Shown: positions 4,990 to 59,492 of the stretch, one piece after another | Layout: each line of letters begins with the position of its first letter | Numbering within the stretch: the stretch's first letter is position 1 | NCBI RefSeq assembly: GCF_054482525.1 | Contig: NZ_CM137006.1 | Direction: 5' to 3' (one strand) | Length of the DNA: 64,000 nucleotides | Program-made: the position numbers and the translations under genes | The notes under the pieces: generated by a model | Database searches by the model: none | Told to the model about the DNA's origin: nothing | Seen by the model: the letters and a program-made list of their open reading frames with translations, nothing else

Positions 4990-5360
4990 CTATACTTCCT
5001 CCGTGTTTTCGATGAGATGTAAGGTAACCAATTTTTGCCGATTCGGCTAATGCGTTTCCATTATCAAATCGATAAGTTTTACCTTACAACCTTCGTAAGA
5101 CAACTTTGTGAACTTTGCACCGCCAGCGGCGATAAAAAGTAAAATGGCCCCCTTTCCAGGTGACCGTGTAATCTGAACTACCCTTTGGTATCTTCAGCGC
5201 CTGCCTGCAGGCTGAGGTGTTGCCCTTACAAATGCAACAACGACATGGATTACAACACCCTCATAAACAAAGGGCAATCACCTGATCTAAGCTCTTACCT
5301 ATGGCAGTGATAGGTTATGCCTTTTACCCGACTTTTGCACTGACTGAAAAGGACAAATTA

Positions 5361-31183: not shown

Positions 31184-33424
31184 ATGAACAAGAAGATTCA
31201 TTCCCTGGCCTTGTTGGTCAATCTGGGGATTTATGGGGTAGCACAGGCACAAGAGCCAACCGATACTCCTGTTTCACATGACGATACCATTGTCGTTACC
31301 GCCGCCGAGCAGAACTTGCAGGCGCCTGGCGTTTCGACCATCACCGCAGATGAAATCCGCAAAAACCCGGTTGCCCGCGATGTGTCGGAGATCATCCGTA
31401 CCATGCCAGGCGTTAACCTGACCGGTAACTCCACCAGTGGTCAGCGTGGGAATAACCGACAGATTGATATTCGCGGCATGGGTCCGGAAAACACGCTGAT
31501 TTTGATTGACGGTAAACCGGTAAGCAGCCGTAACTCGGTGCGTCAGGGCTGGCGTGGCGAGCGCGATACCCGTGGTGATACCTCCTGGGTGCCACCTGAA
31601 ATGATTGAACGTATTGAAGTTCTGCGTGGTCCGGCAGCTGCGCGTTATGGCAACGGCGCGGCGGGCGGCGTGGTTAACATCATTACCAAAAAAGGCAGCG
31701 GTGAGTGGCACGGCTCCTGGGACGCTTATTTCAATGCGCCAGAACATAAAGAGGAAGGTGCCACCAAACGCACTAACTTTAGCCTCACCGGTCCGCTGGG
31801 CGACGAATTCAGCTTCCGCTTGTATGGCAACCTCGACAAAACTCAGGCTGACGCGTGGGATATCAACCAGGGCCATCAGTCCGCGCGTGCCGGAACGTAT
31901 GCCACGACGTTACCAGCCGGGCGCGAAGGGGTAATTAACAAAGATATTAATGGCGTGGTGCGCTGGGACTTCGCGCCTCTGCAATCACTCGAACTGGAAG
32001 CGGGCTACAGCCGCCAGGGTAACCTGTATGCGGGCGACACCCAGAACACCAACTCTGACTCCTATACCCGCTCGAAATATGGCGATGAAACCAACCGTCT
32101 GTATCGCCAGAACTACTCGCTGACATGGAACGGCGGCTGGGATAACGGCGTGACCACCAGCAACTGGGTGCAGTACGAACACACCCGTAACTCGCGTATT
32201 CCGGAAGGTCTGGCGGGCGGTACCGAAGGGAAATTTAACGAAAAAGCGACACAGGATTTCGTCGATATCGATCTCGATGACGTGATGCTGCACAGCGAAG
32301 TTAACCTGCCGATTGATTTCCTCGTTAACCAGACGCTGACGCTGGGTACGGAGTGGAATCAGCAGCGGATGAAGGATTTAAGTTCCAACACCCAGGCGCT
32401 CACTGGGACGAATACCGGCGGTGCTATTGATGGCGTGAGTGCCACCGACCGTAGCCCGTATTCAAAAGCAGAAATTTTCTCGCTATTTGCCGAAAACAAT
32501 ATGGAGCTGACTGACAGCACCATCGTAACGCCGGGGCTGCGTTTCGATCATCACAGCATTGTTGGCAATAACTGGAGTCCGGCGCTGAACATCTCGCAAG
32601 GTTTAGGCGATGACTTCACGCTGAAAATGGGCATTGCCCGTGCTTATAAAGCGCCGAGTCTGTACCAGACTAACCCGAACTACATTCTCTACAGTAAAGG
32701 TCAGGGCTGCTATGCCAGCGCGGGCGGCTGCTATCTGCAAGGTAATGATGACCTGAAAGCAGAAACCAGCATCAACAAAGAGATTGGTCTGGAGTTCAAA
32801 CGCGACGGCTGGCTGGCGGGCGTCACCTGGTTCCGTAACGATTATCGCAATAAGATTGAAGCGGGCTATGTGGCTGTAGGGCAAAACGCAGTCGGCACCG
32901 ATCTCTATCAGTGGGATAACGTACCGAAAGCGGTGGTTGAAGGTCTGGAAGGATCGTTAAACGTACCGGTTAGCGAAACGGTGATGTGGACCAATAACAT
33001 CACTTATATGCTGAAGAGTGAAAACAAAACCACGGGCGACCGTTTGTCGATCATCCCGGAGTATACGTTGAACTCAACGCTGAGCTGGCAGGCACGGGAA
33101 GATTTGTCGATGCAAACAACCTTCACCTGGTACGGCAAGCAGCAGCCGAAGAAGTACAACTATAAAGGTCAGCCAGCGGTTGGACCGGAAACCAAAGAAA
33201 TCAGCCCGTACAGCATTGTTGGCCTGAGCGCGACCTGGGATGTAACGAAGAATGTCAGTCTGACCGGCGGCGTGGACAACCTGTTCGACAAACGTTTGTG
33301 GCGTGCGGGTAATGCCCAGACCACAGGCGATCTGGCAGGAGCCAACTATATCGCCGGTGCCGGGGCATATACCTATAACGAGCCGGGACGTACGTGGTAT
33401 ATGAGCATTAATACTCACTTCTGA
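31184..33424 (+). CDS. fepA: TonB-dependent ferric-enterobactin outer-membrane receptor FepA
   Basis: ORF 31124-33424; start at MNKKIHSLALLVNLGIYGVAQA gives 746 aa; TonB box DTIVVTA, C-terminal F. Confidence 0.95.
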   Translation: MNKKIHSLALLVNLGIYGVAQAQEPTDTPVSHDDTIVVTAAEQNLQAPGVSTITADEIRKNPVARDVSEIIRTMPGVNLTGNSTSGQRGNNRQIDIRGMGPENTLILIDGKPVSSRNSVRQGWRGERDTRGDTSWVPPEMIERIEVLRGPAAARYGNGAAGGVVNIITKKGSGEWHGSWDAYFNAPEHKEEGATKRTNFSLTGPLGDEFSFRLYGNLDKTQADAWDINQGHQSARAGTYATTLPAGREGVINKDINGVVRWDFAPLQSLELEAGYSRQGNLYAGDTQNTNSDSYTRSKYGDETNRLYRQNYSLTWNGGWDNGVTTSNWVQYEHTRNSRIPEGLAGGTEGKFNEKATQDFVDIDLDDVMLHSEVNLPIDFLVNQTLTLGTEWNQQRMKDLSSNTQALTGTNTGGAIDGVSATDRSPYSKAEIFSLFAENNMELTDSTIVTPGLRFDHHSIVGNNWSPALNISQGLGDDFTLKMGIARAYKAPSLYQTNPNYILYSKGQGCYASAGGCYLQGNDDLKAETSINKEIGLEFKRDGWLAGVTWFRNDYRNKIEAGYVAVGQNAVGTDLYQWDNVPKAVVEGLEGSLNVPVSETVMWTNNITYMLKSENKTTGDRLSIIPEYTLNSTLSWQAREDLSMQTTFTWYGKQQPKKYNYKGQPAVGPETKEISPYSIVGLSATWDVTKNVSLTGGVDNLFDKRLWRAGNAQTTGDLAGANYIAGAGAYTYNEPGRTWYMSINTHF

Positions 33425-33463
33425 TGCTAACGTCAGATTGTTGACAAAGTGCGCGTCGTTCAT

Positions 33464-33562
33464 GCCGGATGCGGCGTGAACGCCTTATCCGGCCTACAAA
33501 AATCTTGCCAATTCAATATATTGCAGGACCACGTAGGCCTGATAAGCGTAGCGCATCAGGCA
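33464..33562. repeat. REP/BIME palindromic units
   Basis: gccggatgcggcgtgaacgccttatccggcctac and inverted partner gtaggcctgataagcgtagcgcatcaggc. Confidence 0.7.
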
Positions 33563-33598
33563 GTTTTGTGTTTGTCATCATTCTCTAATATGGTCGAC

Positions 33599-34219
33599 AT
33601 GAAAACTACGCATACCGCCCTCCCCTTTGCAGGACATACGCTGCATTTTGTTGAGTTTGATCCGGCGAGTTTTCGCGAGCAGGATTTACTCTGGCTGCCG
33701 CACTACGCGCAACTGCAACACGCTGGACGTAAACGTAAAACAGAGCATTTAGCCGGACGGATCGCTGCAGTTTATGCGCTGCGGGAATATGGCTATAAAT
33801 GTGTGCCCGCAATCGGCGAGCTACGCCAACCTGTGTGGCCTGCGGAGGTATACGGCAGTATTAGCCACTGTGGGGCTACGGCATTAGCCGTGGTATCTCG
33901 TCAACCGATTGGCATTGATATCGAAGAGATTTTCTCTGTACAAACCGCAAGAGAATTGACAAACAACATTATTACACCAGCAGAACACGAGCGACTCGCA
34001 GAATGCGGTTTAACCTTTTCTCTGGCGCTGACACTGGCATTTTCCGCCAAAGAGAGCGCATTTAAGGCAAGCAAGATACAGGCCACTCAAGGTTTTCTGG
34101 ATTATCAGATAATTAGCTGGAATAAACAGCAGATCATCATTCGACTAGAGGATGAGCAGTTTGCTGTGCACTGGCAGATAAAAGAAAAAATAGTCATAAC
34201 GCTGTGCCAACACGATTAA
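33599..34219 (+). CDS. entD: Phosphopantetheinyl transferase EntD
   Basis: ORF 33449-34219; start at MKTTHTALPFAGHTLHF (alternative MVDM 9 bp upstream) gives ~206 aa. Confidence 0.9.
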   Translation: MKTTHTALPFAGHTLHFVEFDPASFREQDLLWLPHYAQLQHAGRKRKTEHLAGRIAAVYALREYGYKCVPAIGELRQPVWPAEVYGSISHCGATALAVVSRQPIGIDIEEIFSVQTARELTNNIITPAEHERLAECGLTFSLALTLAFSAKESAFKASKIQATQGFLDYQIISWNKQQIIIRLEDEQFAVHWQIKEKIVITLCQHD

Positions 34220-34329
34220 TTGACAACATCTGGTACGATTCGCCCGCAGCCATCACTGACCACGGGCGAAAGTGTAAAGCAGGTGCCTTACCATCCTGAC
34301 CTGACAACCGGATATGCGGGGATTACTCC

Positions 34330-35668
34330 CATAAGCGCTAACTTAAGGGTTGAACCATCTGAAGAATGCGACGCCTCGGTGCCTCGTTAAGACGATGCCT
34401 CGCGTTCTTCAATTGCGTTTTGTAGGCTGTCAGGGATACTGTCCCACGAATGGCCACCTGTAAGCTCCAGATGACCATTTTTGTTATTCTCCACAACGAG
34501 TTAGTTCTTCTTTTCGGATCCGGCACTTCTGGGGGGGAAATCCAGCGATGGCTGGATTATGTCGTCAATTAAAAATGCGGCGAGTAGATTAGCAAATATC
34601 CACGCTTTCGCGAGTTCAGGTTCCTTTGCACGCAAAGCATCCAGGTGCAGCAAACTTTTGAGCCGCTTAAAAGCCAGTTCAATTTGCCATCGCAGACGGT
34701 AACAATCAGCCACTTGCTCTGCTGAATATTCATCTTCCGGTAATGATGTTAGCAATAGCACATGGCCCGCTGCTTCCAGCGTTTCCGCCTGAACTACTCG
34801 TCCTTTTCGACGATTCTCGCTGAGCAGTCGGGTTTTACTGATTAATGCTTTTTCGGGAGGAAGTGATACGGCAATGAGACGTGCCGGAAAGGGAGCTCCG
34901 GCTTTTTTATTACCTGAATTGCCTATCATTACAGTGGTTTCACCGTTCTTACCGCAATCCAGCCCGCGCAGAAAACCCATCATGTCAAAGCGCATTCCTT
35001 CTGCAGTTAACCAGCGCAATCCTCGCCAGTGAACCCGGACGATATAATCAGCTTCTCCAAAAGCAAGTGAGCGGATACATTCGGGACGCGAACCGAATCC
35101 CCGGTCAGCAATGCGTATCTCGTCTGCCGTTTGCGCAAATCGGTCCAGCCGTTCAGCGTCTCTGCTGTCGGTTAGCTCAAAATCAGTGAACTGACAGGTA
35201 TGAGGATCATATCCCATATGTAGTCGCCATTCAGCGCTGCCGCCCCCGGGCGCACTGATTGCTGTTCCATCGACAAGACGCAATCTCTTTCCGCTTGTAC
35301 AACCCGTAACTGCGGCGCGTACAGCAAGTGTTTGTGCGGCAAGTATGCCAAACCAGTCGGCGGCATTCCGCAGCCGCTTCAGGAGAGCCACGTCAGATAA
35401 TGTTGCAACGTCATGGAGCTGAGCCCATGCAGTGACTTCACGTAATGACATCCCCCCGGGGCCGTAAGCCAGCCCCAGACGTAGCAGAGTTGCAGCATCA
35501 CGAATTTCGCGGCGGCGGGTTAGAGCCCCGGCATTACGTGCCGAAGTATCCAGTTCTTCGGGCTTACCAATATGGGCCAGAATTGCTGACCAGTTATCGT
35601 GAGAGTAATTCATCGGCACGTTAAATCATATCAGGCGTAATACCACAACCCTTAAGTTAGCGCTTATG
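34330..35668 (-). mobile_element. IS186 (IS4 family), copy 1, transposase on minus strand
   Basis: ~1.34 kb bounded by 23-bp inverted repeats CATAAGCGCTAACTTAAGGGTTG; flanked by ~10-11 bp direct repeat GGATTACTCC (34319-34329 / 35669-35679). Confidence 0.9.
34501..35619 (-). CDS. insL: IS186 transposase
   Basis: 372-aa ORF MPMNYSHDNWSAILAHIGKPEELD..., identical in protein sequence to the ORF at 36231-37349. Confidence 0.95.
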   Translation of the reverse strand: MPMNYSHDNWSAILAHIGKPEELDTSARNAGALTRRREIRDAATLLRLGLAYGPGGMSLREVTAWAQLHDVATLSDVALLKRLRNAADWFGILAAQTLAVRAAVTGCTSGKRLRLVDGTAISAPGGGSAEWRLHMGYDPHTCQFTDFELTDSRDAERLDRFAQTADEIRIADRGFGSRPECIRSLAFGEADYIVRVHWRGLRWLTAEGMRFDMMGFLRGLDCGKNGETTVMIGNSGNKKAGAPFPARLIAVSLPPEKALISKTRLLSENRRKGRVVQAETLEAAGHVLLLTSLPEDEYSAEQVADCYRLRWQIELAFKRLKSLLHLDALRAKEPELAKAWIFANLLAAFLIDDIIQPSLDFPPRSAGSEKKN

Positions 35669-35689
35669 GGATTACTCCCCGCACAACGG

Positions 35690-35842
35690 CTACTTCTTCG
35701 GTTCGTAAGCGAGAACAGCCTTAAACTCAATATTACGTTCCTTCACCGTAAACTCACACAGCGAGTCGCGGACCAGAAGCGTAAATCCCAGCACCGTTAA
35801 ACACAGCACTATGACTGCCACAAGGGCATATTTCGTCAGCAT
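35690..35842 (-). CDS. Hok-family type I toxin, paralog 1
   Basis: 50 aa [50 protein letters not shown]; single TM helix plus conserved C-terminal Hok signature. Confidence 0.85.
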
Positions 35843-35987
35843 GTTTATATTGCCTCCATGCGAAGAAGGGACTACCATCCGAGTTGTTGAGGTTCGGAGT
35901 GGCAGCCCCAGGATTGATAGAAATATCTCCTGGGGCTTCATCTTTCCAGACCTCAGAGTAAACCTGAAACCGGAAAGCTTCAGGCAC
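35754..35987 (-). CDS. Candidate mok-like overlapping frame (modulator of hok translation), copy 1
   Basis: ORF in another frame that starts upstream of hok and ends inside it, as in hok/mok/sok modules; true start uncertain. Confidence 0.35.
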
Positions 35988-36180
35988 CCGCTGTTATCTT
36001 ACCCTTCCTTAGCAAAATAACTGTTTATTTATACAGCTAGTCCTGTTTCGGACTTCTGTTGGCAACACTCGTTATTGCTCGTAAAACGACATCGCCCGCA
36101 GCCATTGCTGACCGCGGGCGAAAGTGTAAAGCAGGTGCCTTACCACCCTGACCTGACAACCGGATATGCGGGGATTACTC

Positions 36181-37520
36181 CCATAAGCGCTAACTTAAGG
36201 GTTGTGGTATTACGCCTGATATGATTTAACGTGCCGATGAATTACTCTCACGATAACTGGTCAGCAATTCTGGCCCATATTGGTAAGCCCGAAGAACTGG
36301 ATACTTCGGCACGTAATGCCGGGGCTCTAACCCGCCGCCGCGAAATTCGTGATGCTGCAACTCTGCTACGTCTGGGGCTGGCTTACGGCCCCGGGGGGAT
36401 GTCATTACGTGAAGTCACTGCATGGGCTCAGCTCCATGACGTTGCAACATTATCTGACGTGGCTCTCCTGAAGCGGCTGCGGAATGCCGCCGACTGGTTT
36501 GGCATACTTGCCGCACAAACACTTGCTGTACGCGCCGCAGTTACGGGTTGTACAAGCGGAAAGAGATTGCGTCTTGTCGATGGAACAGCAATCAGTGCGC
36601 CCGGGGGCGGCAGCGCTGAATGGCGACTACATATGGGATATGATCCTCATACCTGTCAGTTCACTGATTTTGAGCTAACCGACAGCAGAGACGCTGAACG
36701 GCTGGACCGATTTGCGCAAACGGCAGACGAGATACGCATTGCTGACCGGGGATTCGGTTCGCGTCCCGAATGTATCCGCTCACTTGCTTTTGGAGAAGCT
36801 GATTATATCGTCCGGGTTCACTGGCGAGGATTGCGCTGGTTAACTGCAGAAGGAATGCGCTTTGACATGATGGGTTTTCTGCGCGGGCTGGATTGCGGTA
36901 AGAACGGTGAAACCACTGTAATGATAGGCAATTCAGGTAATAAAAAAGCCGGAGCTCCCTTTCCGGCACGTCTCATTGCCGTATCACTTCCTCCCGAAAA
37001 AGCATTAATCAGTAAAACCCGACTGCTCAGCGAGAATCGTCGAAAAGGACGAGTAGTTCAGGCGGAAACGCTGGAAGCAGCGGGCCATGTGCTATTGCTA
37101 ACATCATTACCGGAAGATGAATATTCAGCAGAGCAAGTGGCTGATTGTTACCGTCTGCGATGGCAAATTGAACTGGCTTTTAAGCGGCTCAAAAGTTTGC
37201 TGCACCTGGATGCTTTGCGTGCAAAGGAACCTGAACTCGCGAAAGCGTGGATATTTGCTAATCTACTCGCCGCATTTTTAATTGACGACATAATCCAGCC
37301 ATCGCTGGATTTCCCCCCCAGAAGTGCCGGATCCGAAAAGAAGAACTAACTCGTTGTGGAGAATAACAAAAATGGTCATCTGGAGCTTACAGGTGGCCAT
37401 TCGTGGGACAGTATCCCTGACAGCCTACAAAACGCAATTGAAGAACGCGAGGCATCGTCTTAACGAGGCACCGAGGCGTCGCATTCTTCAGATGGTTCAA
37501 CCCTTAAGTTAGCGCTTATG
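36181..37520 (+). mobile_element. IS186, copy 2, transposase on plus strand (inverted relative to copy 1)
   Basis: Same 23-bp terminal inverted repeats; interior is the reverse complement of copy 1; flanked by GGATTACTCC direct repeat (36170-36180 / 37521-37531). Confidence 0.9.
36231..37349 (+). CDS. insL: IS186 transposase
   Basis: 372-aa ORF identical to the copy at 34501-35619. Confidence 0.95.
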   Translation: MPMNYSHDNWSAILAHIGKPEELDTSARNAGALTRRREIRDAATLLRLGLAYGPGGMSLREVTAWAQLHDVATLSDVALLKRLRNAADWFGILAAQTLAVRAAVTGCTSGKRLRLVDGTAISAPGGGSAEWRLHMGYDPHTCQFTDFELTDSRDAERLDRFAQTADEIRIADRGFGSRPECIRSLAFGEADYIVRVHWRGLRWLTAEGMRFDMMGFLRGLDCGKNGETTVMIGNSGNKKAGAPFPARLIAVSLPPEKALISKTRLLSENRRKGRVVQAETLEAAGHVLLLTSLPEDEYSAEQVADCYRLRWQIELAFKRLKSLLHLDALRAKEPELAKAWIFANLLAAFLIDDIIQPSLDFPPRSAGSEKKN

Positions 37521-37541
37521 GGATTACTCCCCGCACAACGG

Positions 37542-37694
37542 CTACTTCTTCGGTTCGTAAGCGAGAACAGCCTTAAACTCAATATTACGTTCCTTCACCG
37601 TAAACTCACACAGCGAGTCTCCGACCAGAAGCGTAAATCCCAGCACCGTCAAACACAGCACTATGACTGCCGCAAGGGCATATTTCGTCAGCAT
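37542..37694 (-). CDS. hokE: Hok-family type I toxin, paralog 2 (probably the hokE equivalent next to ybdK)
   Basis: 50 aa [50 protein letters not shown]; differs from paralog 1 at two residues (V8A, R25G). Confidence 0.8.
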
Positions 37695-37794
37695 GTTTAT
37701 ATTGCCTCCATGCGAAGAAGGGACTACCATCCAAATTGTTTGGGTTTGGAGTGGCAGCCCCAGGGTTGATAGAAATATCGTCCTGGGGCTTCAT
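37606..37794 (-). CDS. Candidate mok-like overlapping frame, copy 2
   Basis: Out-of-frame ORF overlapping the 5' part of hok paralog 2. Confidence 0.35.
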
Positions 37795-38125
37795 CTTTCC
37801 AGACCTCAGAGTAAACCTGAAACCGGAAAGCTTCAGGCACCCGCCGTTATCTTACCCTTCCTTAGCAAAATGGCTGTTTATTTATACAGTAAGTCCTGTT
37901 TCGGACTTCTCAATCCTCATTTGATCAACTGAAGCTGAACCCGTTTTTTTCTGCATGCCTCAATCGTCAAAATTCTTCGCCACCAGTCCGCACTGCCATA
38001 ACTTGTCATATTGCAAAATGTAGCCAATTTGCTTCAGTCACCATCATCAAAAAAAAACATTCCAGAACTTCCGCATCTCGCCCAGTCGCTCCCACTTCTA
38101 TACTGAATAGAAAACGCCAACATAA

Positions 38126-59415: not shown

Positions 59416-59492
59416 TGGCGCGCCCTGCAGGATTCGAACCTGCGGCCCACGACTTAGAAGGTCGTTGCTCTATCCAACTGAGCTAAGGGCGC
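59416..59492 (-). tRNA. argU: tRNA-Arg (anticodon UCU), argU-type
   Basis: Minus-strand 77 nt GCGCCCTTAGCTCAGTTGGATAGAGCAACGACCTTCTAAGTCGTGGGCCGCAGGTTCGAATCCTGCAGGGCGCGCCA: cloverleaf, TPsiC loop GGTTCGAATCC, anticodon loop CUUCUAA, encoded CCA. Confidence 0.9.

Follow-up and report, generated by a model that had tools for sequence, protein, structure and literature searches.

Two palindromic units of the REP type lie in the short interval between fepA and entD, which according to the literature form a Fur-regulated operon in which both genes are co-induced. What kind of element is this, how long has it been part of the junction, and what could it do there? A sequence-only reading of the window (the whole 64,000-nt stretch of DNA analyzed here) had suggested that the units may insulate weak entD expression from strong fepA transcription. 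In this work, the element is recognized with practical certainty as a BIME-1 (also RIP or RIB), i.e. it is an already known kind of element and a textbook, ordinary instance of it. For the whole statement, namely that this BIME-1 in addition stabilizes the fepA mRNA and acts as an attenuator before entD, our confidence is moderate.

Gene context of the fepA-entD junction

Gene annotation was taken from RefSeq, transferred by coordinates from the 100% identical locus of strain 1190, and from K-12. The two coding sequences and the parts of the repeat between them are as follows.

31184-33424, + strand: fepA coding sequence (ferric enterobactin outer-membrane receptor), upstream gene of the operon; ORF list and RefSeq annotation transferred from strain 1190
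33433-33463, no strand assigned: left flank motif of the BIME-1, TCAGATTGTTGACAAAGTGCGCGTCGTTCAT; alignment with the katE/chbG, satP/mog, yfiE/srmB and mscS/fbaA copies
33464-33497, + strand: Y-type palindromic unit (REP) with CTAC at its end; pattern scan, fold and paralogue alignment
33498-33532, + strand: L linker of the BIME-1, 35 nt, with an IHF-consensus-like site inside; Rfam RF02751, IHF pattern scan and alignment
33533-33561, - strand: Z1-type palindromic unit (REP), inverted relative to Y, its + strand starting with GTAG; pattern scan, fold and alignment
33562-33585, no strand assigned: right flank motif of the BIME-1, AGTTTTGTGTTTGTCATCATTCTC; alignment and the sequence itself
33599-34219, + strand: entD coding sequence (phosphopantetheinyl transferase), downstream gene; ORF list and RefSeq annotation

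Because fepA and entD are both located on the + strand, the earlier description of the pair as "convergent-side" is wrong; the genes are co-directional and belong to one operon. The divergent gene fes lies upstream of fepA (ORF list and RefSeq annotation). The spacer between fepA and entD comprises 174 bp, and a second in-frame ATG for entD is found at 33590, the annotated one being that at 33599. An ORF of 256 aa (33449-34219) that runs through the BIME was rejected, since it results mechanically from extending entD to a GTG further upstream. REP units ahead of entD were reportedly noted already when this gene was sequenced for the first time. The K-12 RefSeq record lists no repeat feature in the fepA-entD spacer, and literature searches on fepA/entD with REP yielded no paper describing a REP or BIME at this place.

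In the window, entD is followed by a pair of IS186 copies in inverted orientation, located at 34315-35683 (- strand) and 36167-37535 (+ strand). They are 1369 bp long, 99.7% identical to each other and each contain an ORF for a 372-aa transposase. Beside them lie two tandem hokE/sokE modules with Rfam sok matches at 35834-35989 and 37686-37842. Strain 1190, the closest one at fepA-entD, has both hokE copies without IS186 there, and K-12 has one hokE and one IS186. Further Rfam matches at gathering score in the window are an rnk leader (1221-1329, + strand), the sRNA STnc70 (5134-5227, - strand) and a tRNA gene (59419-59492, - strand).

Anatomy of the repeat and assignment to BIME-1

A pattern scan of the window identified GCCGGATGCGGCGTGAACGCCTTATCCGGCCTAC at 33464-33497 on the + strand as a Y unit. 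The second unit, GTAGGCCTGATAAGCGTAGCGCATCAGGC at 33533-33561, is the reverse complement of GCCTGATGCGCTACGCTTATCAGGCCTAC. The tails of the two units, CTTATCCGGCCTAC and GTAGGCCTGATAAG, are mutually inverted copies, and each unit is an imperfect palindrome. The palindromes quoted in the sequence-only reading as REP units in opposite orientation are present exactly where it had placed them, and their location between the fepA stop and the entD start was confirmed, as both lie wholly inside the 174-bp spacer. The Y unit starts 39 nt past the fepA stop codon, which ends at 33424, and the Z1 unit ends 37 nt ahead of the annotated entD ATG.

Homology among the copies of the repeat found at different loci (see below) extends by about 31 nt to the left (33433-33463) and by about 24 nt to the right (33562-33585) of the paired units, and the left flank motif is partly complementary to the right one. 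The full element including its flanks therefore reaches from about 33433 to about 33585. It measures about 153 bp, in agreement with the 140 bp quoted for BIME-1, and takes up nearly the whole spacer, so that no more than 8 nt behind the fepA stop and 13 nt in front of the entD ATG are left free. Of the range originally given for the BIME, 33464-33562, the start holds, whereas the end falls one base beyond the Z1 unit and the repeat itself is larger. Inside the linker, an IHF pattern scan detected the IHF-like site ATTCAATATATTG at 33511-33523, with one mismatch to WATCAANNNNTTR. Read in the sense of fepA transcription, the right flank motif provides a T-rich run, AGTTTTGTGTTTGT, immediately behind the Z1 hairpin.

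In published definitions, the REP sequences of E. coli fall into the types y, z1 and z2, a REP or PU being an imperfect palindrome of about 30-40 nt with GTAG/CTAC at its foot and a stem containing a mismatch. BIME-1 consists of one z1 and one y unit in inverted orientation, occurs as a single copy and has a long conserved L linker in which an IHF site is frequent, whereas BIME-2 is a tandem array of y and z2 units with short linkers. BIME-1, RIP and RIB have been known since the early 1990s (Gilson et al. 1991; Boccard and Prentki 1993; Oppenheim et al. 1993, as summarized in PMC3333891 and PMC2817692). Both units at fepA-entD have CTAC/GTAG feet and internal stem mismatches, and they are extragenic, repeated and dispersed. 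Exactly one Y and one Z1 unit are present, inverted and without tandem amplification, and they are joined by a long conserved L linker containing the IHF-consensus-like sequence. The assignment of the second unit to Z1 relies partly on what we take to be the consensus of the short units and also on its near-identity to the second unit of five other Y-L-Z1 copies. The class named in the sequence-only reading, a BIME of paired REP units, was correct; the sub-family and the full extent are added here. A BIME-2 or gyrase site was rejected, since unit type, linker and copy number (one Y/Z1 pair with a long L linker) are wrong for it.

When the window was shuffled 100 times with its dinucleotides preserved, neither the Y nor the Z1 pattern turned up, even with three mismatches allowed. 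A Hamming scan permitting up to 22% mismatches revealed no further Y or Z1 unit in the 64 kb, so that the BIME-1 at fepA-entD is the sole recognizable Y/Z1 REP within positions 1-64000. With 355 REP loci annotated per E. coli genome, several would be expected in 64 kb as compared to the one that was found.

Other copies of the element in the genome

For searches of complete genomes, a 61-nt core composed of the 35-nt linker and 13 nt of the tail of each PU was used. Megablast with this core retrieves the orthologous site only, once per genome, and thereby falsely suggests that the sequence is unique; in a sensitive search mode, the same core is found at a median of at least 35 places per E. 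coli genome. A 98-nt consensus-style Y-L-Z1 query detected full-length copies at other loci with 90-96% identity and a median of at least 40 matches per genome. With a 451-bp query containing both units, at least 206,943 matches were obtained in 5425 genomes, the median again being at least 40 per genome.

Six paralogous loci (katE/chbG, satP/mog, yfiE/srmB, mscS/fbaA, metJ/yiiX and gyrB/yidB) were retrieved, and the first four of them were aligned with the fepA-entD copy. In these five copies, the Y unit is identical and the linker core TTCAATATATTGCA is invariant. Every column of the Z1 unit is invariant as well with the exception of one, where the katE/chbG copy has a substitution. At other loci, BIME-1 occurs in either orientation relative to transcription, so that the family as such implies no orientation-specific function.

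At four of the six retrieved loci (katE/chbG, satP/mog, yfiE/srmB and mscS/fbaA), the BIME-1 of about 150 bp is bracketed by direct repeats specific to the locus. These are 19-25 nt long (about 40 nt in L094) and 84-100% identical, and each of them is itself a G+C-rich, terminator-like hairpin. In the retrieved sequences they are located as follows.

L088: 1151-1170 and 1325-1344
L091: 1152-1170 and 1324-1342
L092: 1146-1170 and 1322-1346
L094: 1136-1171 and 1303-1339

For katE/chbG, an empty site is present in NZ_CP062853.1 (L100:151-350), which looks exactly as predicted, with one copy of the hairpin and 174 bp less. The arrangement looks like a target-site duplication of the hairpin upon insertion of BIME-1, though the empty site may also have arisen by deletion between the repeats. 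No bracketing direct repeats were found at fepA/entD, metJ/yiiX and gyrB/yidB.

Conservation within Escherichia

A comparison with other E. coli genomes had been proposed as a check on the element, and it bears out its general presence: the core of the fepA-entD copy is found in 5337 of 5426 complete genomes and is missing from 89 (about 1.6%), and at least 80% of the 451-bp locus is present in 5345 genomes. In seven diverse E. coli (K-12, O157:H7, O111:H8, CE10, ST131, a yak isolate and the window), the spacer has a constant length of 174 bp, and the Y and Z1 units are invariant.

For a survey of species, FepA was used as the query with one genome per species, and entD was then located downstream. 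A spacer of 173-174 bp with BIME-1 is present in E. coli, E. albertii, E. whittamii and two further Escherichia sp., and the Y unit is unchanged in the representatives of these five species. Between the window and E. albertii, the spacer differs at 9 of 174 nt, as compared to about 43 differences expected from the third positions of synonymous codons in the flanking genes, which are 73-76% identical to E. albertii (P = 4e-12). The BIME-1 at fepA-entD is far more conserved than the adjacent synonymous sites (5% versus about 25% divergence). It predates the split of E. coli and E. albertii, and both its age and its near-fixation are unusual for a BIME-1.

In ST131 and a related strain, the annotated entD comprises 660 bp as compared to 621 bp with an unchanged start (L007:400-651; L093:1336-1995), so that its product is longer at the C-terminus. 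In L093, a transketolase-family gene follows entD in place of hokE; the context 3' of entD thus differs among lineages.

The same junction in other genera

No BIME-1 is present in the fepA-entD spacer of Citrobacter, Salmonella, Klebsiella, Kluyvera, Enterobacter, Lelliottia, Buttiauxella and others. Absence from close relatives with the same ratio of fepA to entD expression had been named as the observation that would speak against the insulation idea. The absence as such is real, in Citrobacter, Salmonella, Klebsiella, Enterobacter and others, and the site is occupied there by other hairpins. Most spacers outside Escherichia are 40-70 nt long and contain a G+C-rich hairpin of the CCCTCTCC-loop-GGAGAGGG type, which is unrelated to the BIME-1; in some Enterobacter and Lelliottia, palindromic units of a different family are found, either one or several in tandem. 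Examples of the stretches following the FepA match among L012 to L087 are these.

L012: 3793-3842
L036: 3751-4042
L039: 3751-4026
L074: 3751-4243

In Enterobacter, Lelliottia, Pseudenterobacter and Huaxiibacter, the spacer hairpin is expanded to 2-4 tandem units, which consist of a terminator-like hairpin (AAAACGGCAACC...GGTTGCCGTTTTT) and a repeat with a tail of the GGGTGAGGG type. We take the repeats with this tail to resemble 'boxC'.

Among the 72 enterobacterial spacers with entD located downstream, all fold with -17 kcal/mol or less, and 71 have a z score below -2 relative to mononucleotide shuffles. The presence of a stable hairpin at the junction in every relative supports a role of the structure as such. 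The universal hairpins may also simply mark a favored landing site of palindromic repeats.

Predicted RNA structure and proposed function

RNA folding of positions 33425-33600 (176 nt, i.e. the spacer and the first two bases of entD) predicts -64.7 kcal/mol with z = -5.3. The predicted hairpins of the Y and Z1 units have -21.3 and -12.9 kcal/mol, respectively, and a long Y:Z1 hairpin comprising the whole BIME is predicted at -44.8 kcal/mol. A scan for consensus terminators did not flag the element, because the loop and an internal mismatch fall outside the rules of the scan. The run AGTTTTGTGTTTGT is located directly 3' of the Z1 hairpin. Most REPs lack a poly-U tract, with few exceptions.

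According to the literature, REP hairpins block 3'-to-5' exonucleases and can be partial Rho-dependent terminators, and REPs set the stable 3' ends of Rho-terminated transcripts. Throughout the genome, tandem gene pairs containing a REP show a raised ratio of upstream to downstream expression with a wide, context-dependent scatter; REP effects depend on context and are sometimes absent. REP325 between yjdM and yjdN has been described as a stabilizer and partial Rho-dependent terminator (bioRxiv 10.64898/2026.03.23.713779).

As part of the operon transcript, the BIME-1 forms the 3' untranslated region of fepA and, at the same time, the 5' leader of entD, and it most likely acts through the RNA. 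The transcript would fold either as two REP hairpins or as one long Y:Z1 hairpin, followed by the U-rich tract. The hairpin or hairpins would block 3'-to-5' exonucleases and in this way stabilize the fepA part of the message, and partial termination or attenuation would reduce the read-through into entD. Abundant FepA and scarce EntD could thus be obtained from one promoter. Such a stabilizer and attenuator role is plausible and would be the substance of the insulation proposed earlier. Since the copy is unusually old and nearly fixed and a hairpin is located at the junction in every enterobacterial relative, fepA-entD should be a convenient natural test case for the tuning of expression ratios within operons by REPs.

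As to how the present situation may have arisen, we tentatively consider that the fepA-entD copy is a domesticated mobile repeat, which in the ancestor shared by the sampled Escherichia lineages took the place of the short hairpin kept by all other Enterobacteriaceae and has since been under purifying selection as an operon stabilizer or attenuator; we regard this as possible rather than probable. If true, it would be a natural example of a REP-family repeat functionally replacing an intercistronic RNA element.

Alternative explanations

The strong conservation could also come from family-wide constraint or gene conversion and not from a role at the locus. Such forces would be at work if the repeat is a selfish or neutral BIME-1, which landed in the Escherichia ancestor, is harmless and has no function between fepA and entD, its sequence being maintained by recognition through the REP-associated transposase or by gene conversion among the at least 35 copies per genome. 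Because the Y unit is identical across the paralogues, family-level constraint could indeed account for its conservation. For the linker, locus-specific variants are kept in the orthologues (TGCCAATTC as compared to TGCAAATTC in the paralogues), so that homogenization is incomplete. In the literature, BIMEs are proposed to be mobile but non-autonomous, with TnpA-REP/RAYT acting on them, and BIME-1 copies are often present in one strain and absent from another, a behavior also apparent from the filled and exactly empty sites at katE/chbG. Unlike such polymorphic BIME-1s, the fepA-entD copy occurs in 5337 of the 5426 genomes and is older than the split of E. coli and E. albertii. Finally, the lack of BIME-1 at this junction in other genera agrees with a neutral element, whereas the presence of some stable hairpin there in every relative argues against it. 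Overall, we judge a selfish or neutral repeat to be the less likely reading, yet a serious rival.

Three further explanations, an architectural role of the DNA, an independent sRNA and stalling of ribosomes, are all less likely. The first of them supposes that IHF on the linker, alone or together with gyrase at the REPs, would set up a local barrier of an architectural or topological kind downstream of fepA/fes, a region of strong and divergent transcription. The IHF-like site at 33511-33523 is part of the linker that is invariant among the copies, and the literature reports binding of IHF to the inter-REP sequence of BIME-1 and of gyrase to BIMEs. IHF binding to the fepA-entD linker is inferred from this property of the family. 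The sequence-only reading had attributed binding of both proteins to REP/BIME elements in general; for IHF, binding has been published for the BIME-1 linker, and for gyrase the statement needs refining, as high affinity belongs to BIME-2 and is reported to be greater there than for BIME-1. Furthermore, a recent study found neither REP-dependent compaction of the nucleoid nor REP-REP contacts. The junction hairpins of the other genera are plain and have no IHF-like linker, which speaks for a function of the hairpin itself. We consider a barrier at the DNA level improbable.

The linker might instead encode a discrete small RNA, as RF02751 (ES036, CssrF) matches positions 33499-33540, i.e. the linker and the start of the Z1 unit, with 42.2 bits as compared to a gathering score of 37.6. 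This model matches the linker of every BIME-1 copy tested and reaches higher scores elsewhere (47-60 bits at katE/chbG, satP/mog, yfiE/srmB and mscS/fbaA, the best one being katE/chbG with 59.8). The matches to Rfam RF02751 in the retrieved loci are located at the following positions.

L088, L091, L092 and L094: 1235-1277 in each
L011: 3825-3866

The ES036 model thus describes the repeat and not a gene specific to fepA-entD, and RF02751 apparently represents a DNA repeat found at many places and not one individual sRNA gene. The predicted hairpin of the linker alone is weak (-5.9 kcal/mol), and a consensus scan detected no promoter-like site in 33000-34300. An independent sRNA gene was rejected, the Rfam model being the BIME-1 linker, and a discrete small RNA from this linker is highly improbable. 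An entD promoter inside the element was likewise rejected, as there is no consensus match.

Lowering of FepA translation by a REP that stalls terminating ribosomes, which is said to have been described by Liang, Rudd and Deutscher in 2015 for REPs within about 15 nt of a stop codon, shares with the fepA-entD element only the general position 3' of a stop codon and was rejected as highly improbable, since the first hairpin lies 39 nt past the fepA stop, outside that limit, and FepA is an abundantly made protein.

Comparison with known systems

With BIME-2, i.e. the Y/Z2 arrays of high gyrase affinity, the fepA-entD element shares the Y unit and the alternating orientation. It differs from them in that its second unit is a short Z1, its linker is a long L and a single pair is present. 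Regarding RF02751, the fepA-entD linker scores above the gathering threshold of ES036 (CssrF), and the model is common to all BIME-1 linkers tested.

The hairpins of other Enterobacteriaceae occupy the same position as the BIME-1, each providing a stable RNA stem-loop directly between fepA and entD. Their sequences are unrelated, and most of them are single and short, are found in spacers of 40-70 nt and lack a linker of the IHF type.

The closest functional parallels are malE-malF, where Newbury et al. reportedly described the intercistronic REP as a stabilizer in 1987, and REP325. As at fepA-entD, REP hairpins separate two genes of one operon there, the upstream gene being expressed more highly and the downstream gene weakly, and the dual action proposed here, exonuclease block and partial termination, would be alike. 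REP325 is an array of 12 Y/Z2 units of the BIME-2 type, whereas fepA-entD has a BIME-1 of two units. At malE-malF and REP325 the function has been measured; at fepA-entD we infer it from the sequence and from analogy.

When compared to the BIME-1/RIP/RIB elements of E. coli, the fepA-entD element has the same Y and inverted Z1 units, the same L linker with an IHF-type site and the same single-copy, extragenic arrangement, and likewise measures about 140-150 bp with its flanks and lies just past the 3' end of a gene. There is no structural difference. The copy at fepA-entD lacks the flanking direct repeat seen at four of the six other BIME-1 loci examined, and it is located within an operon and not at the end of a transcription unit. 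Whereas many BIME-1 copies are present in some strains and absent from others, the one between fepA and entD is nearly fixed and common to the sampled Escherichia.
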